A stretch of DNA of 64,000 nucleotides from an uncultured delta proteobacterium (GTDB lineage: Bacteria; Desulfobacterota; Desulfobulbia; Desulfobulbales; BM004), in assembly GCA_963783905.1 (NCBI GenBank), contig CAWAPG010000005.1:120576-184575 (forward strand), written 5' to 3'. Below the pieces are notes generated by a model. The model was not told the DNA's origin. It worked only from the letters and a program-made list of their open reading frames with translations, and searched no databases. Position 1 is the stretch's first letter, and every line of letters starts with the position of its first letter. Made by a program: the position numbers and the translations under genes. Shown here piece after piece: positions 19,863-36,210 of this stretch.

Positions 19863-20049
19863 GGTTTTAAAGGGATCTGCGGGGGCCAGGGTCAGATGGG
19901 AGAAGATACAATTAATGCCGGAATGAGGACGTGATGTTTTATTAATATATCAATACTCCTGTATTACAGTATTCCAAGGCAACGGGTAACAGTAACAAGC
20001 CGACCGCCGGTTATGACTGAATAATTAAAATATTGGGAAATGAAATACA

Positions 20050-20544: not shown

Positions 20545-20569
20545 CAGCCCGGCATAGAAAGGAGTATGG

Positions 20570-22273
20570 ATGAAAAAAGTTGATAAGACAAAGGCCGAGA
20601 TCCTCCAGGAACTGGTAGAAACAAAAAAAAGGGTACAGGAACTGGATAACTGCCGGGCTGAATATGAAAAAGCCCGGGATAAATATGAAAACCTTCTTGA
20701 TTCCACTCCGGATGCCATGCTTTTTGTCAGTCCGGAGAACAGGATTATCCTGGTAAATGCCCAGTTTGAGAAGGTCTTCGGTTACGGCCAGGATGAAATC
20801 GTCGGCCGGAAACTTGATGTTCTTATCCCGCCCCGATTCAGAAGAGATCACCACCGCAGGGTCGAGGGCTTTTTCAAGAATCCCAGGGTGCGCTCCATGG
20901 GATCGAACCTCGAGATATACGGCCTGAGGAAAAACGGGGAAGAGTTTCCTGCCGATATAAGCCTGAGTCCCCTGCAGACGGACGAAGAGCTTCTTGTAAC
21001 AGCAGCGATTAGGGATATTTCCCAGCGCAAGGAGGTCGAGGCGCAGATTGAAATGAACTATTATATTCAAAAGGTGATAAATTCCATGCTGAAGATTTCT
21101 CTGGAACCGCTGTCACTCGAAGAACAGTTTGACCGCGTCCTTGACCTGATCCTCAAGGTCCCGAATCTTTCCCTGCAGTCAAAAGGCGCCATTTTTTTAA
21201 AGAAACCCGATTCCGATGTTCTCAAATTAAAGGCACAGCATGGGTTTACCGACCAGGATTCGGTGCCGTGCAACGAGGTGACATTTGGGAAGTGCCTGTG
21301 CGGCAAGGCGGCATCAATGGCAAAACTTATTCATGCCGAAGACATGGATGGTATTCATGAGATCCATGATGCTGCAATATTTCCGCACGGCCATTACTGT
21401 GTGCCCATCGTTTCGGGTGACAAAATCTACGGTCTCCTTAATGTCTACATCAGGGAAGGGCATGAGCGCAGCAACCGGGAGGAAGATTTTCTGACCTCCG
21501 TGACCAGCACCCTGGCTACAATAATAGAGCGGGACCGGGCCGAACAGGAGAAAAAGGATCTGCAGCGCCAGCTGGCGCAGGCCGAAAAGCTGGCTGCACT
21601 CGGGCGGTTTACGGCAAACATAGCCCATGAAATCCGCAACCCCCTGACCTCGGTCGGTGGTTTTGCCCGACGACTGGACAAAACGATTCCAGCGGATACA
21701 AAAGAGAAGAATTATACGAAAATAATCGTTACCGAGGTGACCAGGCTTGAAAAAATTCTCAAGAATATCCTGAGTTTTTCCAAGGCGGAGACCCCCAATT
21801 TTACAAAAAACAACCTTACAAAGGTGATTGAACAGGTGTTGCTGATGAACGAGGACCTGTTTACGGAAAAATCAATTGGTGTACAAAAATCTCTGGCAAA
21901 TGTGCCAAGCTTTTCTTTTGACCGGGATATGCTCATTGAGGTCCTGGAGAACATCATTTTAAACGCGGTAGATTCCATGTCCGATGGCGGGACCCTTTCC
22001 GTAAGCACCGGAAAGGAGGATGGCCCCGAAGGGGCCAATGCTGTTATTAAAGTCCGGGACACAGGTGAAGGCATGTCCAAAGAGCAGCTGAAAATGATCT
22101 TCGAACCATTTTATACCACAAAGGTGGCGGAACAGGGGATCGGTCTCGGTCTGTCGATCACCAAGAAAATTATGGAATCCATGGACGGCAGGGTGGAAAT
22201 CGAGAGCCGGGTGGGCAAGGGGTCAACCGTTATAATGACCCTGCCGTTAACTGAAAACCAGGACCACAGATAG
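20570..22273 (+). CDS. Cytoplasmic PAS-GAF sensor histidine kinase
   Basis: PAS, GAF (GKCLCG), AHEIRNPL H-box, DTGEG and GIGLGL boxes. Confidence 0.9.
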   Translation: MKKVDKTKAEILQELVETKKRVQELDNCRAEYEKARDKYENLLDSTPDAMLFVSPENRIILVNAQFEKVFGYGQDEIVGRKLDVLIPPRFRRDHHRRVEGFFKNPRVRSMGSNLEIYGLRKNGEEFPADISLSPLQTDEELLVTAAIRDISQRKEVEAQIEMNYYIQKVINSMLKISLEPLSLEEQFDRVLDLILKVPNLSLQSKGAIFLKKPDSDVLKLKAQHGFTDQDSVPCNEVTFGKCLCGKAASMAKLIHAEDMDGIHEIHDAAIFPHGHYCVPIVSGDKIYGLLNVYIREGHERSNREEDFLTSVTSTLATIIERDRAEQEKKDLQRQLAQAEKLAALGRFTANIAHEIRNPLTSVGGFARRLDKTIPADTKEKNYTKIIVTEVTRLEKILKNILSFSKAETPNFTKNNLTKVIEQVLLMNEDLFTEKSIGVQKSLANVPSFSFDRDMLIEVLENIILNAVDSMSDGGTLSVSTGKEDGPEGANAVIKVRDTGEGMSKEQLKMIFEPFYTTKVAEQGIGLGLSITKKIMESMDGRVEIESRVGKGSTVIMTLPLTENQDHR

Positions 22274-22446
22274 GCTTGCCGGGTGGCGGAAAAAGCCACA
22301 ATTTAGTAAATAATACATTAAGGGATAGAACAGGCACTGCCCCTGTCCGGGGAATGACATTTGTTTTGAACTGTAAACATGCCGGAGCGGTTCGGCTGCC
22401 GTGTGACTCCTATCCTTAAATAAAAAATCAGTGCCAGGTGTAATAA

Positions 22447-23097
22447 ATGTTTGGCTTATTCCGTAAGAAAAAAGAGATGTCGGTCGAACCTGAAGACAAG
22501 GTGGTGTCTCCAGAGGAAAGGCGCATCTACGTCCTTGATTTTGACCGCACCATCACCATCCTGCATACCGGCGCCATTGCCTACGGGAAAGAGCGCACCC
22601 CCGAATTTATCGAAAGGAATGTCAAAAAGGGATTTGCCGAGTTTGTCCGGCGGGTGGTCAATAAAGGGCACGGCGTCTATATCGCCTCCTACAGCGATGA
22701 TGCCAATGTCGACCTGGTGGAAGAAGATGCGGTCTCCGGCCATGACCTTATCAAATTATACATGGACCAGATATTCGGGCCGGAGCAGACCATATTCATC
22801 GTGCCCCGCAAAAACGAGGCCGGGGAAATTGTTGCCGTCGGCAATATCATTGCCAGCAACAGCCAGGATTACAAGCAGTACCATCTTGACTGCATCCTGC
22901 AGCAGGAAGGCATGGATCCGGGAAATCCCGATGATATGAAACGAATTTATATCCTGGAGGACGATGAAGATGTTGTCCGTTCCTTCATGGAAAAGGGATG
23001 CACGGTCATTGTCCCCTTTTCCGCCTCCAGATCCGCCGACACTGCGGCTACTAAAACACTGTTCACTTCGTATATGCCGGAATCGTTCATGGCATGA
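22447..23097 (+). CDS. Hypothetical protein, HAD-like fold
   Basis: VLDFDRT (DxD) motif I and ILEDD motif IV. Confidence 0.55.
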   Translation: MFGLFRKKKEMSVEPEDKVVSPEERRIYVLDFDRTITILHTGAIAYGKERTPEFIERNVKKGFAEFVRRVVNKGHGVYIASYSDDANVDLVEEDAVSGHDLIKLYMDQIFGPEQTIFIVPRKNEAGEIVAVGNIIASNSQDYKQYHLDCILQQEGMDPGNPDDMKRIYILEDDEDVVRSFMEKGCTVIVPFSASRSADTAATKTLFTSYMPESFMA

Positions 23098-23123
23098 TCC
23101 GCGCCTGAACCGTTTTCATTCTA

Positions 23124-23963
23124 TTGCCCATGGCTGTGATGCAAGATCCCCGGAAGGATGCTACCCTGTCTACTCTTTTGCAGGAAATTGATGTTGTTGC
23201 ATTGCAGCCAGGCTGTGGCAGCGATTTTGAAGCAATGAAATCAGCCGCCGTGGAAAGCATCAGCGAGGTGCTGCGGGATTTCTTGGCAGTGCAGGAAGTT
23301 TCCCAGGATCAGATCACCGTAATTGACGGTTTTGCCTTTCTCTTCAACGATCCGGAATTTTCTCGCTGGCACAGGTTAAACTGGTGGGAACAGCGCAAAC
23401 ATATCCTGTCGATCAAGGATCATCCCTCCTATATCGAGCGGGCGCAGGCCCTGCTTGCCAAATCCTGCCTGGCGCCCTATATCGGCTATTCCGATGATAT
23501 GGTGGCCAAGAGTACCGATCGGGAAGTCAAATGCGCCTGGATGCGCAAACGGCTTGTGTTGCAGGAGTGCTTCTGGAATGTCCTGGACAGTATTTCCCAT
23601 GCGGCATACTTTCAGAAAAAGTACCGGGATATGTTTCCGGCTCTCTGCGTTCTGCTCTGTAATGTTCCTGACAGGGACGGCCGGGTATGGGAACTGGTTC
23701 TCGGTATCGACAACGGCGCCGGTTTCATTTACAAGAAAAGGAGCAGGGAGTCCGGCCTGTTTCGTTTTATCTACAAAATCTATAAGTTCTTTTTTAAAAA
23801 AGGGGTGTTTCACATCGGCGGCTTGAAGCTGGGACTGCTGGAAACGGAGAGTGAACTTTCCTGCCACGGTTCCGGAGCTGTTGTCTACCAGGGCTGTGAC
23901 TGGGATTCGCCCGGGAATTGCCCCGATCCCGTCTCCGGTTCCGCCTCGCCCCTGGCGGGATAA
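23124..23963 (+). CDS. Hypothetical protein
   Basis: 279-codon ORF co-oriented with neighbours; no recognised motif; start uncertain. Confidence 0.5.
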   Translation: MPMAVMQDPRKDATLSTLLQEIDVVALQPGCGSDFEAMKSAAVESISEVLRDFLAVQEVSQDQITVIDGFAFLFNDPEFSRWHRLNWWEQRKHILSIKDHPSYIERAQALLAKSCLAPYIGYSDDMVAKSTDREVKCAWMRKRLVLQECFWNVLDSISHAAYFQKKYRDMFPALCVLLCNVPDRDGRVWELVLGIDNGAGFIYKKRSRESGLFRFIYKIYKFFFKKGVFHIGGLKLGLLETESELSCHGSGAVVYQGCDWDSPGNCPDPVSGSASPLAG

Positions 23964-24124
23964 ATTTGCCAGATGCAAAATTAAGCCGGCACTGTTTTAT
24001 ACCGGCGGAATTGCATCAGCCCAGTGCTGCTGAAGAAGCCGAATCCACAATTCTGCGACTAGATTTTCTCCTACCTCCCGGTTCCTTCCGGTTTATCCAT
24101 AAATCCAAATCTGCACCTGGGCAC

Positions 24125-24173
24125 GTTACCGAGCGGTAACATCAAGCCTGACACTATGTTACCGCTCGGTAAC
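24125..24173. promoter_or_regulatory. Paired GTTACC-N4-GGTAAC palindromes (candidate enhancer sites)
   Basis: GTTACCGAGCGGTAAC (24125-24140) and GTTACCGCTCGGTAAC (24158-24173), 33 bp apart, exact reverse complements. Confidence 0.75.
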
Positions 24174-24224
24174 AAAATATCAAATAAACTTTATAATTAT
24201 ATAATTTCATTAGGAATATTTTTC

Positions 24225-24240
24225 TGGAACAGATTTTGCT
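24225..24240 (+). promoter_or_regulatory. Sigma-54 -24/-12 promoter
   Basis: TGGAACAGATTTTGCT with correct GG/GC spacing, preceded by an AT-rich tract. Confidence 0.75.
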
Positions 24241-24296
24241 AAATAAAAGGCAGAGTACAGTTGGATAACGCATCATTTTACATAATGGAGGGCAAC

Positions 24297-24854
24297 GTGC
24301 AGCAGCAAGGATATAAATCAAAATACAACACCCATGTCATCAGGATTGTTGTCATATTGGTGGTAGCCGCGATTGTCGGCATCGTGGTGCGGTCCCTGAT
24401 GGTGCCTGCTTCTTTCGGTAAATACGGGCACTACCGGGCGGATGCGATTCAGGATGAAATGAACCGGGAGATCCGCAACGGCACCAATGCTTCCTGCCTG
24501 GCCTGTCATCCCTACATCAGGGAGATGCATGTTGCAGGGGTCCACAAAACGGTATCCTGCGAATTCTGCCATGGCCCGGTAGCCGATCATATCCGGGACA
24601 ATAGGGTAATCGCCAAACTTCCCAAGAAGCAGGGCGGCGAGATCAGGGCGCTCTGCCTGCGCTGCCACAACCAGATTATCAGGGCCAGGCCTAAGGAAGC
24701 GATCAGGATGGTTTCCCTCCCGGAGCATCTGCAGAAGAAACATGTGCAGCTGGATCATAACTGCAACCAGTGCCACAACGTTCATGCCCCGCTCATGTGG
24801 GTCAAGCAGGCCAAGGCAATGGTGGGAATTGTTGAGGAGGAGGATAAGCAATGA
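24297..24854 (+). CDS. Membrane-anchored tetraheme cytochrome c (CbcS-like)
   Basis: N-terminal TM; CLACH, CEFCH, CLRCH, CNQCH; GTG after GGAGG. Confidence 0.85.
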   Translation: MQQQGYKSKYNTHVIRIVVILVVAAIVGIVVRSLMVPASFGKYGHYRADAIQDEMNREIRNGTNASCLACHPYIREMHVAGVHKTVSCEFCHGPVADHIRDNRVIAKLPKKQGGEIRALCLRCHNQIIRARPKEAIRMVSLPEHLQKKHVQLDHNCNQCHNVHAPLMWVKQAKAMVGIVEEEDKQ

Positions 24855-25651
24855 AAAAGATTCAGGCTGAAATCAATCGGGACAGGCGGACATTTATAAA
24901 GAAGGTCCTGGGCGGATCCATCGCCGGCTCCCTGCTGCTGGTAATTCCGGCGGGTGCCATGGAGATTCCGGAACAGATCGCCGGTATGCGCGATGAGACC
25001 GGTCCGTTTATCACCGGCAAGAAGTTTGCCTTTATCGTGGATATTACCCGCTGCATCGGCTGCGGATCCTGCTGCGTTGCGGACAAGAATGAATACCAGG
25101 TCCCGGACGGTAATTACCGGACCTGGGTCGAGCGCTATGTCATAGATATTGACGATAACGTTTACGTGGATTCTCCGGACGGTGGGCTGCAGGGGTACGT
25201 CATGCCGCGCCAGGATGTGGATGAAGACAGGGTGCGCGATACCTTTTTTGTGCCCAAGCTCTGCAATATGTGCGAGAAACCGTCCTGCGTCCAGGTCTGT
25301 CCGGTTGGGGCCACATACCAGACCGAAGACGGATTTGTTCTCATCGACCAGAAACGGTGCGTCGGCTGTTCCTACTGTGTGCAGGCCTGCCCCTATTCGG
25401 TCCGCTTCATCAATCCCGTTACCCATACCGCTGACAAGTGCACCTGGTGCTACCACCGGGTCCGCAAGGGACTGCTGCCGGCCTGCGTAAACGTATGCCC
25501 CACCCGGGCCAGGAAGTTCGGGGATCTGCATGACAGGGAATCGGAGGTATATAAAATATTACATCAGCCGCATGTGATTTCCGTCCTCAAACCGGGCATG
25601 GGAAATAAACCATCGCTTCATTATGTCGGCTTGCGAAGGGAGGTGGTCTAA
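24851..25651 (+). CDS. Tat-exported 4Fe-4S protein (NrfC/CbcT-like)
   Basis: RRTFIK Tat motif; CIGCGSC, CNMCEKPSCVQVCP, CVGCSYCVQACP, KCTWC...CVNVCP. Confidence 0.9.
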   Translation: MKKIQAEINRDRRTFIKKVLGGSIAGSLLLVIPAGAMEIPEQIAGMRDETGPFITGKKFAFIVDITRCIGCGSCCVADKNEYQVPDGNYRTWVERYVIDIDDNVYVDSPDGGLQGYVMPRQDVDEDRVRDTFFVPKLCNMCEKPSCVQVCPVGATYQTEDGFVLIDQKRCVGCSYCVQACPYSVRFINPVTHTADKCTWCYHRVRKGLLPACVNVCPTRARKFGDLHDRESEVYKILHQPHVISVLKPGMGNKPSLHYVGLRREVV

Positions 25652-26850
25652 TGCACGGACTGGCAGAAACGGCAACCGCAGCCGCAGGATACGCTTTCCC
25701 CAATGATCTCCATATCCATTGGAGCCTGATGATCGTCCTGTATCCTTATATTACCGGAATCGTTGCCGGGGCATTTATCGTGTCCTCGTTCTATCATGTT
25801 TTTCACATCAAGGCATTAAAACCGGTGGCCAGGTTTTCCCTGATTTTCGCCTTTGCGTTCGTGGCCTGCGCCACCCTGCCGCTGCTGAATCACCTCGGTC
25901 ATCCGGAGCGGGCTTTCAACATGATGTTCACTCCGAATCCTTCTTCCGCCATGGCCGGATTCGGCTATATCTACATGGCCTATACAGTACTTCTGACCCT
26001 GGAGATCCTGTTCATCTACCGGCCGACGCTGGTGGCCCTGAAAAACAGGTCAAGCGGTTTCAGGCAAAAGCTCTATAATGTCCTGACCATCGGCAGCGAC
26101 AACCTGTCCGAAAGGGCATTAGCCCTTGATGGCAGGATAATCGCCTTCTTAGCCGGTGTAGGGATTCCCATGGCCTGCATCCTGCACGGTTATGTCGGGT
26201 TTATCTTCGGCGGCGTCAAGGCCAATCCCCTCTGGGCCACACCCCTGATGCCGGTCATTTTTCTCCTGTCAGCCTGTGTTTCAGGCATTGCCGGCATCAT
26301 AGTCGCCTACATGGCAATCATGAAGATGAAAGGGCGGCCCATTGACATGAACTGCGTCCGCACCTGCATCATGTATCTGTGGGGTTTTTTCATCCTTGAC
26401 TTCGTGTTTGAGATGCTGGAACTCTTCTCCCATGCCTACATGGCGACCCATCACTGGGAAACGCTGCATGAACTCCTGTGGGGACCGCTGTACGGGAGTT
26501 TCTGGATCCTGCAGGTGGGCATTTTTTCCGTGATCCCGTTTCTTCTCTTATCCTGGATGAATCTTTTTCGGCTCAACAATGGTCTCGTTCGGGTCCTGGC
26601 GCCCGTGGTGTCGGTCATGATCCTTTTCCAGGTGCTGTTAATGCGCTGGAACGTGGTCATCGGCGGTCAGCTCATGTCCAAGAGCGAACGCGGCGCCGTG
26701 TTCTTTCACCCGCAATGGCTGGAAAAAGAGGGAATTCTTCCGGCTCTCATTATAATGGTATTGCCCCTGGTAATTCTCTACCTGCTGAGCAAGATCTTTC
26801 CATTCTGGCAGGAGGATGACCCGGCAGTCCTTATACAGACGATGGATTAA
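25651..26850 (+). CDS. NrfD/PsrC-family membrane subunit (CbcU-like)
   Basis: W...IVLYPY, HLGHPER, PNPSSAM, RWNVVIGGQ; many TM helices. Confidence 0.9.
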   Translation: MHGLAETATAAAGYAFPNDLHIHWSLMIVLYPYITGIVAGAFIVSSFYHVFHIKALKPVARFSLIFAFAFVACATLPLLNHLGHPERAFNMMFTPNPSSAMAGFGYIYMAYTVLLTLEILFIYRPTLVALKNRSSGFRQKLYNVLTIGSDNLSERALALDGRIIAFLAGVGIPMACILHGYVGFIFGGVKANPLWATPLMPVIFLLSACVSGIAGIIVAYMAIMKMKGRPIDMNCVRTCIMYLWGFFILDFVFEMLELFSHAYMATHHWETLHELLWGPLYGSFWILQVGIFSVIPFLLLSWMNLFRLNNGLVRVLAPVVSVMILFQVLLMRWNVVIGGQLMSKSERGAVFFHPQWLEKEGILPALIIMVLPLVILYLLSKIFPFWQEDDPAVLIQTMD

Positions 26851-27043
26851 GCACAAAGAAAGTGCTGGATTGTAAACAGAATAATTCAACGAAAGGAGGA
26901 GTCAAAAAAACGAGGGAGGTGAAGCTGCGAGAACACTGGAAACCTGCATCTGGAGCAAATACCTGGTCACAAGCGGAAGCAGGATGTAGCGAAAAAATGG
27001 CTTCCGCAGAGAGGCCGATGACCTTAATTGAGGAGGGAAGTAT

Positions 27044-28630
27044 ATGAGACATTTGAAGAAAATTTTACTGATGGCGGTCCTTGGCGTCTTTGCTGCCGGC
27101 ACGGTCTACGGAACGACGGAAAAGTCAAAGAACACCCAGGACCCTGAGATCAAAAGCCTTAACGTGAAGTGCATCAACTGCCACCTCAAGGAGAACAACT
27201 CCATGGTCCAGCAGTGGCAGTACTCGCCGCATGCGGCGGCCAAGGAAGGCCAGGTGGCCTGCATGAACTGCCATGCCGCCAACAAGGGCGACGAACTTGG
27301 CTACGAGCACGAAGGCGCCTTTATTAAAACGATCCAGACACCGAACGACTGCGCCTACTGTCATGAACGGGAGGTAAAGGAAATGGTCAACTCCCATCAT
27401 GCCACCGCCGGCCAGATCATGGCTTCGCTGGACAACGTCGTGGGTGAGGTGATCTGTTCCATGGAGGACAAGGCCGATGCGGTCAACGGCTGCTGGCAGT
27501 GTCACGGTTCGGTGGTCAAGATCATGAAGGACAAGGACGGCAAACCCATGATGAACGAGGCCAAGGCCGTCATGCTGGATCCCATGACCTGGCCCAATAC
27601 CGGCATCGGTCGCATCAACCCCGACGGCTCCACCGGATCATGCATGGCCTGCCATTCCAAGCATTCCTTCCGGGCCAGCGTTGCCCGCCAGCCCGACAAC
27701 TGCGGCAAGTGCCACCTGGGTCCGGATCATCCCCAGAAAGAGGTTTATGACGAATCAAAGCACGGCATCGCCTACTACGCCGTGGTGCGCGAAGGTGGCA
27801 TGAACGGCATGAACATTTTAAAGAACGGTACCTGGGTCCTGGGCAAAGATTACTATAATGCCCCGACCTGTTCCACCTGCCACATGGGAGCGTATGTGAA
27901 GCTCGACGGTTCTGTCTCGCCGAATTCGCATAATGTCGGTGACCGGATTTCCTGGACCCTGCGCCCTAAAGTTTCAGTCAAGCTGAACCGGGTCATCTTT
28001 GCCGACGGCACCGTCACCGATATGCCGGGTGACACCCCGCCGCAGCCGGGACAGAAGGCACCGTACCAGACCTATTCCATTGAAGACGGGAAGTGGAAAA
28101 AAATCAAGACCGAGAAGCAGGTTCAAAAGGTTTTGACCTGGAAGGACCGCCGCTCCAAGATGCAGGAGGTGTGCAAGTCCTGCCACGGCAAACAGCAGGT
28201 GGAGAATTTCTACACCCAGTTTGACTCCCTGGTCGTCACCTACAACGAAAAGTTCGCCAAGCCGGCCGCCAAACTGTATGGTATGGCCATGCAGGACGGT
28301 TTGATCCACGGCTCAACCTTCCACACCGAGCTTGGCTGGATCTGGTGGGAGATATGGCATCATGAGGGCCGCAGGGCCCGCCACGGAGCAGCCATGAGCG
28401 GGCCGGACTACACCCACTGGCACGGCATGTACGAAGTGGCGAAACACTTCTACTTCGAGTTCATTCCGGAACTTATGCGTCTTGCTGAAGAAAAGGGTAT
28501 GACCGACAAGTACAAGGAAGAGGTAGGAGTTATTCTCGCCAGGCCTGAACACCAGTGGTACCAGCAGGGCTTTGATGCCGATGTTATGAAGGCCATCAAG
28601 GCGGAGCAGAAAGAGCGTTACAAGCAATAA
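27044..28630 (+). CDS. Octaheme HAO-family cytochrome c (reductive, epsilon-Hao-like)
   Basis: Signal peptide; eight CxxCH; HLGPDHPQ, WHHEGRR, GPDYTHWHG motifs. Confidence 0.88.
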   Translation: MRHLKKILLMAVLGVFAAGTVYGTTEKSKNTQDPEIKSLNVKCINCHLKENNSMVQQWQYSPHAAAKEGQVACMNCHAANKGDELGYEHEGAFIKTIQTPNDCAYCHEREVKEMVNSHHATAGQIMASLDNVVGEVICSMEDKADAVNGCWQCHGSVVKIMKDKDGKPMMNEAKAVMLDPMTWPNTGIGRINPDGSTGSCMACHSKHSFRASVARQPDNCGKCHLGPDHPQKEVYDESKHGIAYYAVVREGGMNGMNILKNGTWVLGKDYYNAPTCSTCHMGAYVKLDGSVSPNSHNVGDRISWTLRPKVSVKLNRVIFADGTVTDMPGDTPPQPGQKAPYQTYSIEDGKWKKIKTEKQVQKVLTWKDRRSKMQEVCKSCHGKQQVENFYTQFDSLVVTYNEKFAKPAAKLYGMAMQDGLIHGSTFHTELGWIWWEIWHHEGRRARHGAAMSGPDYTHWHGMYEVAKHFYFEFIPELMRLAEEKGMTDKYKEEVGVILARPEHQWYQQGFDADVMKAIKAEQKERYKQ

Positions 28631-28653
28631 CCTGCAAATAATTAATTGAGGAG

Positions 28654-28695
28654 AAGCGCCCCGGCCGCCAGAACCAAATCACCGCCGGGGCGCTT
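28654..28695 (+). terminator. Stem-loop after the octaheme gene
   Basis: 12-bp stem AAGCGCCCCGGC/GCCGGGGCGCTT with an 18-nt loop. Confidence 0.5.
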
Positions 28696-28715
28696 TACCC
28701 AGCACATACGGTAAA

Positions 28716-29336
28716 ATGCATATGATACTGAGACAGCGGACAAATATTTTTCAGGACAATGTTACTGCAATACTGCTGCTGCTGGTTGTCCTGCTGCAGG
28801 CAGGAACCACGGTAGCGGCAGCGTCCGATCTTGCAGCACGGGTGGCCGCCCTTGATCTTGGTATGAACGGCTATATTATCGGCGCCGGACTTTCCGGGGC
28901 TCAGAAGGAGGCCGCTGCGACCAATATAAGCCGGGATTCGTATGAAGGAACCTATAAGTTCCGGGATGGAGACCTGTTCATCATAGCCGCGGTCAATGAT
29001 GATACGATTCTTGCCATATACCAACGTAATGATGAGGCGGAGATGGAGCAGGCCAGATTCATGGTTTCCGGCCTCATGGGGCTTTACGGTGAACCCACGA
29101 CCATGGCCCACGAAAAGCTGATCTACTGGGCCTATACCGATACCGGCAAGATCGCTGAAGAGACCTATAGAAAACTTATGGAAAGCGATACACCCCTCAA
29201 TATTCTGGCGACGGTCAAATTCAACAGTTCTTTTGAAATAACGGCTGAAAACCCTGACGGGGATATAACCGGATCCATCTATTTTATTATTACCTCAGAC
29301 CCCCTGGTCCGGGAATTTATCAGCCGGGACAAATAA
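28716..29336 (+). CDS. Hypothetical exported protein
   Basis: Hydrophobic signal ending in AAA; lies inside the hao cluster. Confidence 0.65.
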   Translation: MHMILRQRTNIFQDNVTAILLLLVVLLQAGTTVAAASDLAARVAALDLGMNGYIIGAGLSGAQKEAAATNISRDSYEGTYKFRDGDLFIIAAVNDDTILAIYQRNDEAEMEQARFMVSGLMGLYGEPTTMAHEKLIYWAYTDTGKIAEETYRKLMESDTPLNILATVKFNSSFEITAENPDGDITGSIYFIITSDPLVREFISRDK

Positions 29337-29350
29337 GGATAACAATCGCC

Positions 29351-29366
29351 GTTACCTAATGGTAAC
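29351..29366. promoter_or_regulatory. Third GTTACC-N4-GGTAAC site upstream of the two-component genes
   Basis: GTTACCTAATGGTAAC. Confidence 0.7.
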
Positions 29367-29447
29367 ATAAGTGTTGATCGGCGGAAAAGTAGAGGATATA
29401 ATGTTTTAATAATCCGCTTACGCTAACCCGTTCCAGGTAGATTTAAC

Positions 29448-31058
29448 GTGAATCTCACCGTCAAGTTTATAATCGCCATCAGTGCAATTATCCTCCTGTC
29501 TTATGGATTTCTCCTGTATCAGACTTCACATCTGCAGAACCAGCTGGTCATGGAACAGGCCCGCCAGCAGGCCCGTGTTCTCTATAAACAGATTCTTCTG
29601 ACCCGGGCGTGGGTTTCGGACCACCAGGGACTTTTCTTCGTCAAAACAGAAGGAGTAGATGAAAATCCCTACCTGCACGAGGCGGCGATCAGGGCGGATG
29701 ACGGTACGATGTTTGTCAAGCGCAATCCGGCCATGGTAACCCGGGAGCTTTCAGAATATGCAGCCAGATCAGGATTCTGCTGGTTCAGGATCACCAGTCT
29801 CAACCCGGTTAATCCGGAAAACAAACCGGATGAGTTTGAACGGCAGGCAATGGAGAAAATCCAGGGCGGGCTTGACGAGTATGAGGCCATAACCACGACC
29901 TCCGAGGGCAGGGTGCACAGGTATATCGCCCCGGTCATGGTCCAGGAGTCGTGTCTTGTCTGTCATGCCGAGCACGGTTATTCAATCGGCGATATCCGCG
30001 GCGCCCTGAGCATCAGTGTTCCCCTGGCCTGGGCAGACAAGGTTATCCAGAAGAACAACTTCACCATCATAAAGTATTCCGTGTTTTCCATTTTTGCCGT
30101 GGCCCTGGCCCTCATCTACCTGTTCAACAAGCTGGTTGCCCGGCGCATTGAGCGATTGTCGCACGCCATGGGAAATTATCCCGATCAGGCATATGCGGTT
30201 GCCGATGACAAACACCTGCTGGATGATGAGATCGGCGGGCTTATAAACGGTTTCAACGATCTCTGTGAACGGCTCGGCAAGGCGCAGCGGGATTTGGATA
30301 AGACCATGCAGCAGGCCTTTTACAGCGAAAAAATGGCCTCCCTCGGCCAGTTGACCGCCGGTATTGCCCATGAAATAAACAATCCGCTGGGAGGGCTGCT
30401 CAACTGCGTGAAAACCATGCAGGAGGAACCGGAGAACCTCGAGCTGCACAACCGGTATATACCCCTGCTGGAAAAGGGGCTCAAGCGGATAGAGCACATC
30501 ATGCGCCAGCTCCTTAATTTCGGGCGCAAGGCGCCGTTGACTTACAGTAATGTGGTCATCGACGAGGTCATTCGTGAATGTTTTGAACTGCTTGAGTACC
30601 GTCTGAAAAACATAGATCTGACCCTGGATCTGAATCTTTCCGAAAAGTACTGCATTGATGTCGAGGCGCTGCGGCAGATCGTAATCAATACCGTCCTGAA
30701 TGCCATCCAGGCAATGCCGGAGGGAGGCCGCCTGACCGTCAGCACCAAACGGACCTACAGCCGCATCGCCATAACTGTTGAAGATACCGGCACCGGTATC
30801 GCGCCCGAGATTAGGAAAAAGATCTTTGATCCTTTCTTCACCACCAAGGAAGTCGGCGAGGGAACCGGCCTCGGGCTGGCCGTCACCTATTCCCTGGTAC
30901 AGCAGATGGATGGTGTCATTGAGGTGGATAGTGAACTCGGTAAAGGCACGGTGTTTACCATAACGCTGCCGGCCTGTCGGGAATATGCAAAAAGTAAGAA
31001 TGAGCGGATTTCCATGCCGCATCAGGAGCACGAGGATGGCTCGAATACTGCTGGCTGA
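29448..31058 (+). CDS. Sensor histidine kinase with periplasmic heme-c (DUF3365-like) domain
   Basis: TM, NPVNPEN.PD.FE, CLVCH, second [20 protein letters not shown]. Confidence 0.9.
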
Positions 31059-32397
31059 AGATGATGAAATTATGCGGATCACGGTCCAGGACCGGCTGGA
31101 GAAAAACAACTGGCATGTTGATGCCGTTCCGAACGGCAGCGATGCCGAGAAACGGTTGCAAGAGGAAAATTACCACCTGGTGATTTCCGATATCCGTATG
31201 CCTGGAGTAGACGGCTGGCAGCTGCTCAAATACGTCCGCCAGTCCTTGCCGTTAACCGACATTATCATGATGACCGCCTTTGGCAGCGTCGATGATGCCA
31301 TTGAGTCTTTAAAAAACGGGGCTGCCGACTACATCCTGAAGCCATTTAATATGGATGATCTGATTATCCGCGTCAGCCGTATTCTGGAGATGCAGACGAT
31401 CAGGGCCCGGTGTACGTCCCTTGAGGAAAACTGCCGGGAGATCCATCCGGACCTGATCGGCAGCAGCAAGGCTATGGAACGTATCTATGGCCTGATCAGG
31501 CAGGTGGCCCCGAGCGACTCAACCGTGCTGATCCTCGGTGAATCAGGCACCGGCAAAGAACTGGTGGCCAGCAGCATCCACAAGCACGGCAGCAGAGCCG
31601 ATAAACCCTTTGTGCGGATCAACTGTGCCGCCATACCGGAAGGATTAATGGAGTCGGAGCTCTTCGGCCATGAAAAGGGAGCGTTTACCGGGGCCCATGC
31701 CAGAAAACCCGGGAAGTTTGAAATGGCTGACGGCGGCACCCTGCTGCTTGATGAAATCGGTGAACTGCCGCAGCCGCTCCAGGCCAAACTCCTAAGGGTT
31801 CTGCAGGAAAACACCTATGAGAGGGTCGGGGGCACAGCAACCATCAGCATCGATGTGCGCATTATCGGTGCAACGGCGAAGGACCTTGAAAAAGCGGCAG
31901 AGAACGGCGGTTTCCGGCAGGACCTTTTTTACCGGCTCAACGTTATACCGATCAAACTGCCACCGCTGCGGGAGCGTAAAGAGGATATTCCGCTTTTGAC
32001 CAACCATTTTCTGCACGAATTCAGCATCAAGCGGGGACTGACCTTGGAAATAAGCTCATCAGCAATGCAGAGCCTGATCGATTACGATTATCCGGGCAAC
32101 GTGCGGGAATTGAAAAATATCATTGAAAGGGCCTCGGTGCTGGCCCCGGAAAAGGTCATCAAACCGGATGACCTGCCGGCGGACCTCCTGGAAGTAAATG
32201 GCTGTAAGGATGGAGGTGAATCATTTCTCATCTGTGATGCCGTGGCAAAAACAGAAAAGCAGGTACTGCTCAAGGCCCTGACCCGGACAAAAGGAAAAAA
32301 GGGCGAAGCAGCTGAACTGCTTGGCATCAGCCGAAAGAATTTGTGGGAGAAAATGAAGCTCTATGACATTTCACTCAAAAATTATCCATCCGGATAA
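31036..32397 (+). CDS. Sigma-54-dependent NtrC-family response regulator
   Basis: Receiver domain, GESGTGKE, GAFTGA, C-terminal Fis HTH. Confidence 0.93.
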   Translation: MARILLAEDDEIMRITVQDRLEKNNWHVDAVPNGSDAEKRLQEENYHLVISDIRMPGVDGWQLLKYVRQSLPLTDIIMMTAFGSVDDAIESLKNGAADYILKPFNMDDLIIRVSRILEMQTIRARCTSLEENCREIHPDLIGSSKAMERIYGLIRQVAPSDSTVLILGESGTGKELVASSIHKHGSRADKPFVRINCAAIPEGLMESELFGHEKGAFTGAHARKPGKFEMADGGTLLLDEIGELPQPLQAKLLRVLQENTYERVGGTATISIDVRIIGATAKDLEKAAENGGFRQDLFYRLNVIPIKLPPLRERKEDIPLLTNHFLHEFSIKRGLTLEISSSAMQSLIDYDYPGNVRELKNIIERASVLAPEKVIKPDDLPADLLEVNGCKDGGESFLICDAVAKTEKQVLLKALTRTKGKKGEAAELLGISRKNLWEKMKLYDISLKNYPSG

Positions 32398-32572
32398 ACG
32401 GGGCGAAAACTGCAAGGCATCCCTGCTGCCGATGCATTTTTTCCTGGGAGCAGATGGCAATTCAGACTTCAGGCCGGAAAAATACAAAGCACCGCTTGAA
32501 AATACTTATAAAGCTGCATACAATAGTATCAAGTTTTTTTGCAGAGTTGTTCTTACAAAAATTGATAAATGT

Positions 32573-32667
32573 CTCCGAGCCTAAGGACCTGCCTCCTTGT
32601 TGGGAAATGGTTCGCGGCCGATAGGGTGTGATTGGAAACGGTCATGCCTCCCGTGTTTGGAAAGGAG
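32573..32667 (+). ncRNA. Molybdenum/tungsten cofactor (Moco/Tuco) riboswitch
   Basis: CTCCGAGC...GGCC..AGGGT, GAAA-tetraloop stem, GCCTCCCGT...TGGAAAGGAG; directly upstream of moaA and includes its RBS. Confidence 0.85.
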
Positions 32668-32672
32668 TGTTT

Positions 32673-33692
32673 GTGATAAATCGACATACAGATTCTACTG
32701 TTCCACGCTCAGCCGCCCTTTTGTCCGATAACCATGACAGGACCATCACCTACCTGCGCCTATCCATCACCGACCGCTGTAACCTCCGCTGCCGGTATTG
32801 CCGTCCTGAAAAGGGTGTTCCTTTTATTCCGCACAAAGAAATTCTCTCCTTTGAGGAACTGGAACGTCTAACCACCATTTTCTGCAGCTTGGGCGTTGAC
32901 AAGGTGCGGGTCACCGGCGGCGAGCCTTTTGCCCGCAAGGGTTGTCAACATTTCCTGCAGAGACTTAAGGCGATTGATGGCCTTCATTCTCTGCATATCA
33001 CAACCAACGGGGTTGAAACGGCCAGATATCTGGATATTCTTGAAGAACTTGGCATCGGCGGCATTAATCTCAGCCTTGACACCCTTGATCAACGCCGATT
33101 TCAGCACATTACCCGGCGCGATTACTTCAGCGAGGTCATGCAGTCCCTCGACGGCATTATCGGACGGGGGATACCTCTCAAGATAAACAGCGTAGTCCTC
33201 GCAGATACAAGCGATGAGGAAATTATCCGGTTGGCCGGTCTGGCCCGGGAGTATCCAATCACGCTGAGGTTTATTGAAAAGATGCCGTTCTCAGGTACCG
33301 CCCGTCCGGTTAAACTGGTAAACGGCCACCTGCTGCAGCGGCTCACCAATATTTTCCCGACAATGGAGGAGCAGAAGCTCCAGGCACCATCCACGGCGCG
33401 TATTTTTTTCCTGCCCGGATACCGGGGCATGCTCGGCATCATCCAGGGCTATTCAAGACTTTTCTGCTCAACGTGCAACAAGGTGCGTATCACCCCCACC
33501 GGCATGTTAAAAACCTGTCTCTATGACAACGGCGTCCTTGATCTTAAGAAAATGATGCGGGAAGGAGCCGGTGACGGGGAAATTGAATCCGCTGTTCTCA
33601 CCTGCATCCGTAAGCGCTGTATCAACGGCCATGAAGCGGAGCATCTTGCCAAGCGGGACAAGGAGCCGTCCATGGCCAGTATCGGCGGATAG
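32673..33692 (+). CDS. moaA: GTP 3',8-cyclase
   Basis: YLRLSITDRCNLRCRYC, TGGEP, FCSTCNKVR...CL, C-terminal IGG; GTG start after AAGGAG. Confidence 0.95.
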   Translation: MINRHTDSTVPRSAALLSDNHDRTITYLRLSITDRCNLRCRYCRPEKGVPFIPHKEILSFEELERLTTIFCSLGVDKVRVTGGEPFARKGCQHFLQRLKAIDGLHSLHITTNGVETARYLDILEELGIGGINLSLDTLDQRRFQHITRRDYFSEVMQSLDGIIGRGIPLKINSVVLADTSDEEIIRLAGLAREYPITLRFIEKMPFSGTARPVKLVNGHLLQRLTNIFPTMEEQKLQAPSTARIFFLPGYRGMLGIIQGYSRLFCSTCNKVRITPTGMLKTCLYDNGVLDLKKMMREGAGDGEIESAVLTCIRKRCINGHEAEHLAKRDKEPSMASIGG

Positions 33693-33789
33693 CCGGTCTT
33701 GCACGATCCTGCAGGTTCATCGGCAACATCATGGAATAGCATGGAGGACGTTAATCCACAAAAATGGGGTTAAAGGGAGAATATAGTAG

Positions 33790-34719
33790 ATGATTGATGT
33801 CAGTCCCAAGTTTAACTCGTTGCGTTACGCCCTGGCGGAGGGTTTTTTGTTCGGCAGGGAGGAAACTCTGCAGCGGGTGTTTGCCAAAACCGTACCCAAG
33901 GGAGACGTAACCGAGGTCGCCAGGGCCGCAGGGATAAATGCGGCAAAGCGATGTGCCGACTGGATCACCTTCTGTCATCCCATTCCCCTTGACTGGGTCG
34001 AAGTCCGTTTCGAGGAGAACAAGGATAAGATAAAGGTGACGGCAGAGGTTCGTTCGGTATGGAAGACCGGGGTGGAAATGGAGGCGATCACCGCCGTGTC
34101 GGCAGCCCTGCTGAATGCTTACGACATGCTCAAGCCGCTGGACGATTCACTCTCCTTCGGGGATATCCGGGTGGTAAGAAAAAAAGGTGGTAAAAGCGAT
34201 TTTTCCGATTCTGCTGCCGGGAGCATCAAGACCGCGGTTCTGGTTATATCGGATTCCACCCATGCAGGGAAGAGAGAGGATAAATCCGGCAGAGTGATCC
34301 AGGAATTCCTTGCGGACAAACCGATACAGGTGGAACGTTATGAAGTGCTTCCTGATGAGAAGGAGATGATCGCTGACCGGCTGCGCCGTTTGGCGGATGT
34401 TGACGGAGTCAGATTGATATTCACCACCGGCGGCACCGGCCTCGGGCCCCGGGATGTGACGCCGGAGGCAACGCTGGCGGTCATTGACCGGTCAGTGCCG
34501 GGTATTGTTGCAACGATCAGAAGCTACGGCCGGGACCGGACTCCCTTCGCCATGCTTTCACGGGGCGAGGCCGGGGTAAGAAAGGACAGCGTTATAATCA
34601 ACCTGCCCGGCAGTTCCAAGGGTGCCCTGGAAAGTCTGCAGGCACTTTTCCCGGGATTACTGCATATTTTCCCCATGCTTGAGGGTAAAAGTCACGGAGA
34701 GTCCAACCACACAGATTGA
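33790..34719 (+). CDS. moaC: Bifunctional MoaC-MoaB/MogA fusion
   Basis: PKGDV, CHPI, TGVEMEA, YDMLK then ISD...DKSG, TGGTG..PRDVTPEA, NLPGS. Confidence 0.92.
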   Translation: MIDVSPKFNSLRYALAEGFLFGREETLQRVFAKTVPKGDVTEVARAAGINAAKRCADWITFCHPIPLDWVEVRFEENKDKIKVTAEVRSVWKTGVEMEAITAVSAALLNAYDMLKPLDDSLSFGDIRVVRKKGGKSDFSDSAAGSIKTAVLVISDSTHAGKREDKSGRVIQEFLADKPIQVERYEVLPDEKEMIADRLRRLADVDGVRLIFTTGGTGLGPRDVTPEATLAVIDRSVPGIVATIRSYGRDRTPFAMLSRGEAGVRKDSVIINLPGSSKGALESLQALFPGLLHIFPMLEGKSHGESNHTD

Positions 34720-34735
34720 TGGAGGTTTAAAAATA

Positions 34736-35170
34736 ATGGCATTTATAGAAGCCGTCTGTATAAGCCGAAAGAAGGGCATGGTAAAAAAAGAACAGGATAA
34801 GGTCGATGTCCGGGAAAACTGGGGTATCGAGGGTGACGCCCATGCCGGTGACTGGCATCGGCAGGTTTCCCTGCTTGCCGGTGAATCCATTGATACCGTA
34901 AAAGAGATTCTGCCGACCCTTAAAAACGGGGCGTTTGCTGAAAATATCATTACCCGGGGAATTGATTTAAACCGCCTGCAGATCGGCAACCGGCTGCAGA
35001 TAGGCGATGATGTCATTCTGGAGATAACCCAGATCGGCAAGGAGTGTCACAACGCCGGTTGCGCCATTAAGAAGGCAACCGGTGACTGCATCATGCCGCG
35101 GGAAGGAATATTCGCCCGGGTGATCCAGGGCGGCCTTCTTTGGAAAGATTTGGAGATCAGGATTGTTTAG
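34736..35170 (+). CDS. MOSC domain protein
   Basis: GIEGDAHAG..HRQVSLL, FAENI, QIGKECH...C.MPREG. Confidence 0.9.
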   Translation: MAFIEAVCISRKKGMVKKEQDKVDVRENWGIEGDAHAGDWHRQVSLLAGESIDTVKEILPTLKNGAFAENIITRGIDLNRLQIGNRLQIGDDVILEITQIGKECHNAGCAIKKATGDCIMPREGIFARVIQGGLLWKDLEIRIV

Positions 35171-35186
35171 TCAGGCCGGCTGTGAA

Positions 35187-35600
35187 TTAAAGCCCCAAGG
35201 CTGCTGACGCCTTATCAAAATCATTCGACCTGATATAGACTATATACCCGAAGCTCCCCTGTCCATCAGTGACACCGCTGGCTGAGTACACATTGACATC
35301 AGCTTCATAGATCTTTCGGTGGATTTCCGCCAGTGCCCCAAGTTCATCATCTCCCTGGACCAGGAAGGCCTTGTGAGGCCCGTCCAGGTGCATATTCATT
35401 TTACTCGCTTCATGCCGGAACTGGGCCGGGTCGGCAGGGAAAATGGTCAGTTGGGTAACGCTCGGCCCGACAGGAACGGCGGTAAAGGCGAGCAGATTGA
35501 TGCCAAGTCCGGCCAATTGAGAAAGTAACTTATAGGCCTCGCCGGGCTGGTCCGCCACCGTGGTGTGAAAGTATTCCACCCGTGAAATTTTAAATTCCAT
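35187..35600 (-). CDS. Tandem ACT-domain protein
   Basis: DQPGE...L...GINL and DELGALA...VNV; GGAGG RBS before ATG 35600. Confidence 0.75.
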   Translation of the reverse strand: MEFKISRVEYFHTTVADQPGEAYKLLSQLAGLGINLLAFTAVPVGPSVTQLTIFPADPAQFRHEASKMNMHLDGPHKAFLVQGDDELGALAEIHRKIYEADVNVYSASGVTDGQGSFGYIVYIRSNDFDKASAALGL

Positions 35601-35802
35601 AAATACCTCCTCCTGCAAGAAATTGGTGCGGGTTAAATTGCCATTTCTGCAGCAATTTTTTTCAAACCGACAGTAATACCGGTTTCTGTAAATATAATAA
35701 GCACCATTGAGGAAATCTTCTATCCAGGTTGACGGCAAAAATCTCAGGCCTAACCAGTTATGCCGTTACAAGCGTCCGGGGTGCTGATTGAGATTGCAGG
35801 AT

Positions 35803-36210
35803 TTAAAAGAAACCGAATTTTCTGTTCAGGTTAAGGACGGTTGAAATAAAAAGGATGATAAAAAAGGTGTAGGTGGTGATGGCATCAACGGTCTTGGGAT
35901 CCGTGTCGAGTCCGGTCAGCTTATCCACCATATATTTTATATAATATTCCGTATGGGGCTTCTCGCCCAAACGTTTTTTGATTTTCCACTGGATATCCGT
36001 TATCAGGCAGTAACCGAAGCCGTAAATTATTCCCAGACCGCACCAGGACAGCAGGATGAGAATGGAAAGAATAAAATGGGCCGGGAGGGTTTTGTCCCAA
36101 ATCCAGCCGATAAGAAAAAAAGTGATAACACCAATATGGATGACATGGAAAAGTATATTGCCCAGCCATAAAAGAAAATTGGGCTGATATGTATGCAATT
36201 TACTGCGCAT
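35803..36210 (-). CDS. DUF2784-like small membrane protein
   Basis: H...F...GW, GYCLITD.QW motif; start overlaps the upstream stop. Confidence 0.65.
   Translation of the reverse strand: MRSKLHTYQPNFLLWLGNILFHVIHIGVITFFLIGWIWDKTLPAHFILSILILLSWCGLGIIYGFGYCLITDIQWKIKKRLGEKPHTEYYIKYMVDKLTGLDTDPKTVDAITTYTFFIILFISTVLNLNRKFGFF

Follow-up and report, generated by a model that had tools for sequence, protein, structure and literature searches.

Closest described systems

Several bacteria of the sulfur cycle convert nitrate to ammonium without the aid of NrfA, and since 2017 there have been guesses as to which enzyme they use instead (PMC5276818, PMC9676032). In Thermosulfurimonas dismutans a core of four genes was noted by Slobodkina et al. 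in 2017 and hypothesised to serve nitrite reduction in NrfA-less ammonifiers, 'or alternatively' to act on sulfur compounds (PMC5276818); the same cluster was described for strain F29 (PMC9676032). Here we analyse a seven-gene island at positions 24261-32397 of a 64,000-nucleotide stretch of DNA, called the window below, from an uncultured delta proteobacterium of the Desulfobulbales (assembly GCA_963783905.1, contig CAWAPG010000005.1, positions 120,576 to 184,575). The island is a real and well-conserved system of a kind already noted in print. We consider it probable, with some reserve, that it encodes a quinol-fed octahaem cytochrome c of the IhOCC kind that reduces nitrogen oxides, together with its own sensor and sigma-54 switch, nitrite being the likely substrate and ammonium the likely product.

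In the NrfABCD architecture, the quinol oxidase NrfD and the four-cluster protein NrfC deliver electrons to a small multihaem cytochrome and from there to a periplasmic catalytic multihaem enzyme (PMC12285233). IhOCC belongs to one clade with HAO and HDH and is referred to as an octahaem nitrite reductase without P460 (PMC9250108, a secondary citation for the activity). Within the HAO family, the Tyr-less HAOr reduces nitrite and does not oxidise hydroxylamine, and epsilon-Hao of the Campylobacterota, likewise Tyr-less, reduces both nitrite and hydroxylamine in vitro (PMC8042395). Among quinol-side proteins, CbcS is listed as a putative inner-membrane quinol oxidoreductase cytochrome (PMC11492766). 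As to sensing, the sCache_haem domain (DUF3365/Tll0287) is an extracytoplasmic Cache with haem c bound covalently at CxxCH, and a signalling-fused member from Pseudomonas azotoformans binds NO like known NO sensors, with slow off-rates (preprint 10.64898/2026.02.01.703092).

An earlier note on this DNA had invoked an epsilon-Hao-type octahaem in Desulfurivibrio alkaliphilus, an attribution that has to be given up: the enzyme of that organism has been presented as a homologue of nrfA (PMC5516251) and as an octahaem with CXXCK that is a homologue of TaNiR (PMC12142623). The MccSep selenoprotein (PMC13510729) was considered as a relevant precedent and set aside as a different enzyme with five haem motifs. 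Literature searches, with subscription papers and supplements outside their reach, returned no experimental test of the function of the module, and no statement was found in the literature on an NrfCD context for IhOCC.

The octahaem cytochrome

The octahaem gene (27044-28630, + strand) encodes a protein of 528 aa with a signal peptide or anchor. Its eight CxxCH motifs, at residues 43, 73, 103, 150, 200, 220, 276 and 377, follow the order of the family and are all invariant in an alignment of 38 sequences; the protein sequence contains no CxxCK motif. PF13447, the family of the HAO/HDH/IhOCC clade, is matched at 65 bits (cut-off 21.9). When searched against the PDB with phmmer, the sequence hits 4qo5, the IhOCC of Ignicoccus hospitalis, at 1e-43, 6h5l (Kustc0458) at 3e-12 and Nitrosomonas europaea HAO at 1e-10. 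A profile of 38 diverse homologues aligned to PDB chains gives the same order, with E values of 8e-121 for 4qo5, 6e-49 for 6h5l and 3e-45 for 4fas, and its positions 25-427 cover residues 8-511 of the 4qo5 chain, that is, nearly the full length. An AlphaFold model built on the 38-homologue alignment reached a pLDDT of 89.5 and a pTM of 0.86. Its top 11 Foldseek matches all belong to the HAO clade (probability 1.00, TM 0.49-0.65), among them 4qo5, 6h5l, 1fgj, 4n4n, 6hif, 4n4j, 4fas, 4n4m and 6t5e, the best being 4qo5 with an E value of 9e-22, a TM of 0.65 and about 25% identity. By both profile and Foldseek the octahaem is more similar to 4QO5 than to HAO or HDH proper. Among solved structures the closest relative is thus IhOCC by all three methods, and not an epsilon-Hao, to which the earlier note had likened this protein.

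The motif GPDYTHWHG occupies residues 453-461 of the octahaem. The profile aligns without gaps to residues 433-496 of the N. europaea HAO chain (4fas_A, mature numbering), with G456, A458 and P462 matched and chain P462 standing opposite octahaem P454, so that chain Y467, the Tyr of N. europaea HAO that is cross-linked to the catalytic haem of the adjoining subunit, lies opposite Trp459. In the same profile alignment IhOCC has a Phe at this position. The motif has this Trp in every one of 120 close homologues (57-93% identical), and in the wider alignment of 38 sequences the Y467 column is made up of 23 W, 1 Y, 7 other residues and 7 gaps. The earlier proposal that Trp takes the place of the cross-linking Tyr is therefore borne out, by the alignment with N. 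europaea HAO (Y467 = W459) and not by a trimer structure. Octahaem D228-H229, within GPDHPQ, align with D267-H268 of 4fas_A, which form the Asp-His pair on the distal side of the catalytic fourth haem, and Arg307 stands opposite chain Y334. As this haem cannot receive the Tyr cross-link, given Trp459 in place of the Tyr, the enzyme should act as a reductase. Judged from its sequence by phmmer, profile and fold comparison, by the Tyr-less position and the conservation of its Trp, and by the literature on IhOCC and Tyr-less HAO, the octahaem is a reductive-type HAO-clade enzyme of the IhOCC kind.

It is also worth mentioning that another contig of the same genome (G000:C15:296192 region; L011 1027-2280, + strand) encodes a second HAO-family octahaem. 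This protein of 417 aa has 8 CxxCH motifs, matches PF13447 at 97 bits and reaches 98 bits with a hydrazine-dehydrogenase model, far under the cut-off of the latter. Its motif NPDYVTWYG has, by eye, a Trp at the cross-link position, and the genome thus appears to encode two Tyr-less HAO-type proteins. Elsewhere in the order, one genome carries two tandem full-length octahaem copies, 76% and 62% identical to that of the window (G020:C4:90756-94653), and many Desulfobulbales genomes (e.g., G150:C1:1282344 and G123:C28:20346) encode a class of shorter paralogues, whose frames of some 440-530 aa share 51-58% identity with residues 42-311 of the window protein. This class may correspond to the cable-bacterial pMHC/epsilon-Hao-like group of preprint 10.1101/2020.02.22.960823.

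The island and its conservation in related loci

The seven open reading frames (ORFs) of the island all lie on the + strand, with the coordinates and the common orientation that the earlier note had given them. The order begins with a membrane-anchored tetrahaem cytochrome c (24261-24854, likely start GTG 24297 behind GGAGGG; 197 aa, 4 CxxCH, N-terminal hydrophobic anchor, PF14537 at 29 bits), which has no NrfH/NapC family match in the NCBIfam scan; its orthologues in related loci are 37-75% identical. Overlapping it by 4 bp is the gene of a Tat-exported NrfC-type four-cluster iron-sulfur protein (24851-25651, 266 aa, twin-arginine motif RRTFIK, 4Fe-4S dicluster domains, PF13247 at 99 bits), followed with a 1-bp overlap by that of an NrfD/PsrC-type integral membrane quinol-interacting subunit (25651-26850, 399 aa, PF03916 at 137.6 bits). 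The best NCBIfam scores of the NrfC-type protein are all under cut-off, namely TtrB 218, DsrO 159 and NrfC 153 bits (cut-off 378), while the NrfD-type protein reaches 67 bits with TIGR03148 NrfD against a cut-off of 348 and also matches DsrP and Psr-type models. With the equivalog cut-offs unreached, the two are members of the NrfC and NrfD families and not orthologues of the E. coli-type proteins. These motifs, domains and alignments agree with the earlier description of a Tyr-less, reductive-type octahaem fed by a tetrahaem/NrfC/NrfD module.

Behind the octahaem gene, at a distance of 85 bp, lies the fifth gene of the module (28716-29336), which encodes an exported protein of 206 aa with a signal-like N-terminus. 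It has no match in Pfam, NCBIfam or the named Atlas clusters, and its family profile gave 0 matches against the PDB at E up to 1; in the Atlas only unnamed clusters are hit, the nearest named ones (0.82-0.85) being probably due to chance. Eight residues, P127, T128, A131, H132, W138, G144, K168 and S194, are invariant in 27 sequences of the family. A single-sequence AlphaFold model was unusable (pLDDT 38), and a complex prediction with octahaem residues 30-528 and residues 38-206 of the fifth protein, run without controls, scored 0.00. A gap of 111 bp separates the fifth gene from the kinase gene.

The octahaem has homologues of 58-87% identity in 79 related loci, which come from Desulfobulbales, Desulfobacterales, Thermosulfurimonas, Sulfurovum and one Krumholzibacteriota metagenome-assembled genome (MAG). 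Counting only loci with enough flank, the tetrahaem, NrfC and NrfD genes lie directly 5' of the octahaem gene on the same strand in 65 of 68, and the fifth gene lies directly 3' of it in 66 of 69. This survey answers the question of co-conservation raised by the earlier note in the affirmative: the arrangement of the module is not due to chance. A NapA homologue is adjacent in 20 of the 79 loci. In that of T. dismutans S95 (L032) two unnamed genes stand between the module and napA (660 bits with TIGR01706), napG and napH downstream of it.

The two unnamed ORFs of L032 (10283-12205, between module and napA) encode 494 and 137 aa and match no NCBIfam family. Homologues of the 137-aa ORF stand in front of napA in 13 other loci; it is probably a NapD-like chaperone, a name that is a guess.

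Candidate operators and promoters

Upstream of the tetrahaem gene there are two exact copies of the palindrome GTTACC-N4-GGTAAC, located 33 bp apart: GTTACCGAGCGGTAAC at 24125-24140, the distal candidate activator site (UAS1), and GTTACCGCTCGGTAAC at 24158-24173, the proximal one (UAS2). A third exact copy, GTTACCTAATGGTAAC at 29351-29366, lies just 5' of the kinase gene and is a candidate autoregulation site. These three are the only exact copies in the 3.23-Mb genome, all within the island, whereas about 0.2 would be expected by chance (by arithmetic).

The 79 related loci (1.02 Mb) were scanned for the same pattern with up to one mismatch. They contain 98 operator-like sites, against 5 for a control palindrome. 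In 37 of the loci, the 700 bp 5' of the tetrahaem gene hold 64 of the 98, most of them paired at a distance of about 33 bp. Of the others, 17 precede nap operons (in 12 loci), 14 precede the gene of the orthologous kinase (in 10 loci) and 3 are found in other places. The sites are confined to Desulfobulbales-type loci (Desulfobulbaceae, Desulfocapsaceae and similar) and unclassified MAGs, L012-L068; none was found upstream of the module genes in the Desulfobacterales, Thermosulfurimonas or Sulfurovum loci among the 79 scanned.

Between the palindromes and the tetrahaem gene lies a sigma-54-type promoter-like element (-24/-12), TGGAACAGATTTTGCT at 24225-24240 (+ strand), with one mismatch to TGGCAC-N5-TTGCW. 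It is situated about 57 bp before GTG 24297 and 52-100 bp downstream of the palindromes, with an AT-rich spacer between. Of the 64 relatives scanned, 22 have an element of the form YTGG-N9-TGC no more than 200 bp from the gene start. In front of the kinase gene there is a sigma-70-like promoter, TTGATC-17-TATAAT (29374-29402, + strand), a consensus match only, since 10 such matches were found in the region against 8.9 expected.

Sensor kinase and sigma-54 regulator

The sixth gene (29448-31058) encodes a sensor histidine kinase of 536 aa, built of a transmembrane segment, a periplasmic haem-c Cache domain (Tll0287/DUF3365) with CLVCH, a second transmembrane segment, HisKA (PF00512) and HATPase (PF02518). 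PF11845 is matched at 86 bits (cut-off 24.1) over residues 32-192; the CLVCH motif lies inside this stretch, and hydrophobic segments flank it on both sides. The last gene (30985-32397, likely start ATG 31036) encodes an NtrC-type sigma-54-dependent response regulator of 470 aa with REC (PF00072, 97 bits), AAA+ (PF00158, Sigma54_activat, 241 bits) and HTH_8 (PF02954, 44 bits) domains, for which no NCBIfam equivalog reaches its cut-off. What is expected of an NtrC-class activator is all present, i.e., REC, sigma-54 AAA+ and HTH_8 domains in the protein, a promoter-like element at the target, and rpoN in the genome (435 bits, over cut-off).

With orthology set at >= 45% identity, that is, at least 45%, within the fetched flank, kinase and regulator orthologues accompany the module in 16 and 15 of the 79 loci, respectively; the kinase orthologues in related loci are 47-77% identical. 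The earlier claim of a dedicated haem-c sensor kinase and sigma-54 activator is upheld for this island, with these flank counts as a qualification. Five further genomes with operator sites and no kinase in the flank were inspected. Each encodes a full-length kinase orthologue, with one of the frames truncated and an identity of 51-58% along the greater part of the protein, at a position a little beyond the flank or in another part of the genome; three of these kinase genes are immediate neighbours of the nap-hao locus. Searches of the literature on the function or regulation of the module returned no description of this kinase/regulator pair or of its operator.

The genome of the window and the distribution of the octahaem

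The genome consists of 20 contigs (3.23 Mb) and is rated 100% complete. No match over cut-off to PF02335 or TIGR03152 was found anywhere in it, and in this respect the NrfA-independence asserted in the earlier note holds. A sub-threshold PF02335 match (23 bits; G000:C1:287701 region, L001 1264-3110) was rejected as NrfA: it is a 394-aa cytochrome with seven CxxCH and a C-terminal anchor, followed by a 216-aa cytochrome b-like membrane protein. NapA is likewise absent from the genome, the best TIGR01706 score (138 bits) belonging to a TGA-containing formate dehydrogenase (FDH)-like frame and the best match to Desulforhopalus NapA being 33% identical, and NarG was not found in it either. Two molybdoenzymes, on contigs C7 and C15, were examined as cryptic nitrate reductases and rejected, as they score FDH-like (435 bits) and PhsA-like (554 bits). 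dsrA is present. The 'complete chain' of the earlier note is therefore too strong a term, and with neither NapA nor NarG in the genome the possible substrates are limited to nitrite or later intermediates.

In a sample of 151 genomes of the order, a full-length orthologue of the octahaem (at least 62% identical) was found in 14. Twelve of these 14 have NapA (E up to 1e-120), compared with 50 of the 137 others, and NrfA (by PF02335) occurs in 2 of 14 compared with 84 of 137. Among 12 other genomes of the window's own genus, nine have NrfA, four have NapA and none has the full-length orthologue (0/12). The best orthologue of the window octahaem (87%) belongs to another family, which suggests, from sequence identity, that the island was acquired laterally.

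Proposed function and alternative explanations

In the proposed mechanism, NrfD would oxidise quinol in the membrane, the Tat-exported four-cluster NrfC would take up the electrons on its periplasmic face, and the anchored tetrahaem cytochrome c would relay them to the periplasmic octahaem. The latter would reduce nitrite, along with NO and hydroxylamine as its intermediates, most likely to ammonium, and the fifth exported protein, of about 200 aa, would accompany it. The five structural genes would most likely be transcribed from the sigma-54 promoter at 24225-24240, activated by the NtrC-type regulator of the island from the two GTTACC-N4-GGTAAC sites 33 bp apart, once the adjacent kinase has phosphorylated it in response to binding of NO or a related nitrogen oxide by the periplasmic haem-c Cache. 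The third palindrome, before the kinase gene, suggests autoregulation. In relatives, the module and nap would form one regulon. The genome of the window has DsrAB and no NapA, NarG or NrfA, and here the island would therefore act not in a full nitrate pathway but on outside nitrite, made by other organisms, for detoxification to the benefit of DsrAB-dependent metabolism and/or for nitrite respiration. NrfHA in Desulfovibrio devoid of nitrate reductase offers an analogy. The earlier view of a nitrite ammonification or detoxification chain thus stands in part: nap adjacency, the common operator and co-occurrence with NapA with avoidance of NrfA lend comparative support to nitrogen oxides, and the full chain is lost.

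Several points weigh against this proposal. In our searches no assay was found of any member of this bacterial octahaem family; IhOCC, at about 25% identity (Foldseek), is distant, and the part that it plays in the physiology of Ignicoccus has been termed speculative (PMC4429474). In Kuenenia, the product of the Tyr-less HAOr is NO instead of ammonium (PMC8042395). A single operon is predicted, yet 193 bp separate nrfD from the octahaem gene. Short contigs, 90-95% alike, from one run of an RNA library lie over the tetrahaem, nrfC, nrfD, octahaem and regulator genes, but their source is a relative, with possible DNA carry-over, and none of them bridges this gap; they are not taken as a sign of expression or co-transcription, and no meaning attaches to stretches that they leave bare. 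Two DNA runs (X1 and X3) contain nearly identical pieces and may represent the source samples. At one mismatch the operator pattern occurs 8 times genome-wide, as does its reversed control (8), and so the argument has to rely solely on the exact copies and on where they lie. The sigma-54 pattern, at up to 2 mismatches, was found 36 times in the window against 37.6 expected, i.e., without enrichment, so that for TGGAACAGATTTTGCT, itself one mismatch from consensus, position alone is the argument. The groups compared for co-occurrence were set by identity after the data had been seen, related genomes are not independent of one another and many are incomplete MAGs. Finally, the genome of the window lacks a nitrate reductase, and the nap association of its relatives is not directly transferable to it.

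Of the alternative explanations, the least improbable, still an unlikely one, is that the octahaem is a detoxifier or NO-forming enzyme, which reduces NO or hydroxylamine, or nitrite only as far as NO, and conserves no energy. HAOr (Kustc0458), the second closest solved relative, does reduce nitrite to NO (PMC8042395), the sensor family has an NO-binding member, and the genome lacks nitrate reductase and encodes a second HAO-like octahaem elsewhere. A stress enzyme, however, fits less well than a respiratory replacement of NrfA with the dedicated NrfCD-type quinol module, with the tight linkage and co-regulation with nap in relatives and with the anti-correlation with NrfA, and a sulfate reducer would gain little from forming NO. 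It is also unlikely, and slightly more so, that the octahaem is a reductase for a sulfur compound (sulfite, tetrathionate, polysulfide or thiosulfate) or a general periplasmic electron relay, the nitrogen link being secondary. Sulfur compounds, in the form of tetrathionate or polysulfide, were an equal alternative for the first describers of the locus (PMC5276818), and the best scores of the NrfC-type protein, with TtrB and DsrO, speak against nitrogen oxides, as do the DsrP and Psr-type matches of NrfD. Moreover, the bacteria that host the module have DsrAB and take part in the sulfur cycle. IhOCC, which has been discussed as an electron relay (PMC4429474), is the protein of an archaeon that reduces sulfur, and multihaem enzymes are reportedly promiscuous with regard to both nitrogen and sulfur substrates (PMC13510729). 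A sulfur substrate or a relay role would, on the other hand, leave aside the operator common to nap and this operon, the adjacency of napA in 20 of 79 loci, the rarity of the gene where NrfA is present, and the retention of the HAO active-site Asp-His pair.

The remaining two explanations have little to recommend them. The likeness of tetrahaem, iron-sulfur and NrfD components to Geobacter Cbc-type quinol oxidoreductases, together with weak Pfam matches to MtrC/MtrF domains (24 and 39 bits), could point to a conduit for extracellular or metal electron transfer. We regard this as very improbable, as no outer-membrane porin or large multihaem conduit gene was seen in the ORF list for 20000-37000 or in the neighbours scanned, the octahaem is of a catalytic type with an open-site haem motif and retained Asp-His, and the locus is linked to nap. 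An oxidative HAO, feeding electrons from hydroxylamine or hydrazine into the quinone pool, is hardly credible: its clade is that of the octahaem by sequence and fold, but the place of the cross-linking Tyr is taken by Trp459, as in all 120 close homologues, Tyr-less HAOs so far tested oxidise no hydroxylamine at useful rates (PMC8042395), and the host genome is of an anaerobe type with DsrAB. Reduction of nitrogen oxides, with nitrite as the likely substrate and ammonium as the likely product, remains the preferred function.

A bolder proposal is offered tentatively and may well prove wrong. The module could be a third widespread respiratory ammonifying nitrite reductase beside NrfA and ONR, which has displaced NrfA in many Desulfobulbales, Desulfobacterales and Thermodesulfobacteria, and which in Desulfobulbales would form a sigma-54 regulon with nap through GTTACC-N4-GGTAAC and a haem-c Cache kinase sensing NO or nitrite; in the genome of the window it would be a lateral acquisition, used without a nitrate reductase. 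If this were true, surveys based on nrfA and onr only, such as the 1-million-genome screen (PMC10716430), would miss such organisms and undercount sediment ammonifiers, and sulfate reducers would have a second mechanism of nitrite tolerance. Three elements were not found in print: the fifth conserved gene, the operator that the promoters of hao, nap and the kinase have in common, and the displacement pattern with respect to NrfA. With the island, the leading candidate is available in a clean copy that comes with a regulator, and its genome has no NrfA or nitrate reductase to complicate the interpretation. It offers as handles a defined five-gene unit with an unnamed fifth gene, a predicted operator and promoter, and a predicted NO-type sensor, and the module is carried by cultivated bacteria: Desulfopila sp. 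IMCC35008, Desulforhopalus singaporensis and T. dismutans.

Neighbouring genes

Directly 5' of the island (20570-23963, + strand) lie a PAS-GAF histidine kinase gene (20570-22273) and two ORFs of 216 and 279 aa, which match no Pfam family and are without homologues throughout the 79 related loci. At this position the closest relative, L012, has a divergently oriented set of napA, napG and napH instead. The regulator gene is directly followed by moaA, a moaC-MoCF_biosynth fusion and a MOSC-domain gene (32628-35170, + strand). Homologues of the moaC fusion, 42-45% identical, are located 5.4-5.9 kb 3' of the octahaem gene in seven related loci (L016, L017, L023, L026, L030, L033 and L064), and genes for the molybdenum cofactor thus remain neighbours of the module even in this genome, which no longer has nap. 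Farther away, at 46137-49523 (+ strand), a single ORF of 1128 aa combines a molybdopterin oxidoreductase (PF00384 and PF01568, residues 63-711) with a class-V aminotransferase/cysteine-desulfurase-type domain (PF00266, residues 748-1107), an unusual fusion.

Comparison with known systems

The nearest described locus is that of T. dismutans S95 (L032), in which the tetrahaem, iron-sulfur, NrfD and octahaem genes encode proteins 49-63% identical to those of the window. The module of T. dismutans adjoins nap, and its published count is four genes, the fifth being left out, whereas the genome of the window is without nap. The scan of L032 revealed no palindromic operator, and the locus has no orthologous kinase or regulator (36% and 33% identity only).

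Among characterised enzymes, IhOCC (Igni_0955, 4QO5) shares with the window octahaem the eight haems, the lack of a P460 cross-link and an aromatic residue other than Tyr at the Tyr467 position. Unlike the archaeal IhOCC, the window octahaem is encoded in a bacterial module that has a fixed set of five genes and a regulator. Kustc0458 HAOr of Kuenenia stuttgartiensis (6H5L), the second-best solved match with about 17% identity (Foldseek), also lacks the Tyr cross-link and is a proven reductase, but it makes NO, partners a dihaem cytochrome in a dodecamer and belongs to an anammox context (PMC8042395). With epsilon-Hao, compared by description only, the window octahaem has in common the absence of the cross-link Tyr in the profile alignment, and an orthologue from Sulfurovum (L076) is 60% identical to it and has the same gene context. 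Genes of epsilon-Hao pair with a NapC/NrfH-type cytochrome, whereas the window tetrahaem has no NrfH-family match and an NrfCD pair is present.

The Geobacter Cbc4 (CbcSTU) complex consists of a tetrahaem cytochrome, an iron-sulfur protein and an NrfD-like membrane protein. Its likeness to the window module is an architectural analogy only, and Cbc4, unlike the module, takes part in respiration with metals and electrodes and is not known to be linked to an HAO-family gene. As in 'cluster 2' of the sCache_haem proteins, the island kinase has a periplasmic PF11845 haem-c Cache between two transmembrane helices, fused to a signalling output. The NO-binding receptor of P. azotoformans has a HAMP output and works with a Ser/Thr kinase; in the island protein the output is HisKA/HATPase, paired with a sigma-54 activator, and the ligand is a prediction. 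In its layout the module parallels NrfABCD of E. coli, with the octahaem in the place of NrfA and the tetrahaem in that of NrfB. It differs from the latter in its catalytic subunit, an HAO-clade octahaem with CxxCH motifs throughout instead of a pentahaem NrfA with CxxCK, and in its relay, a membrane-anchored tetrahaem instead of the soluble pentahaem NrfB.

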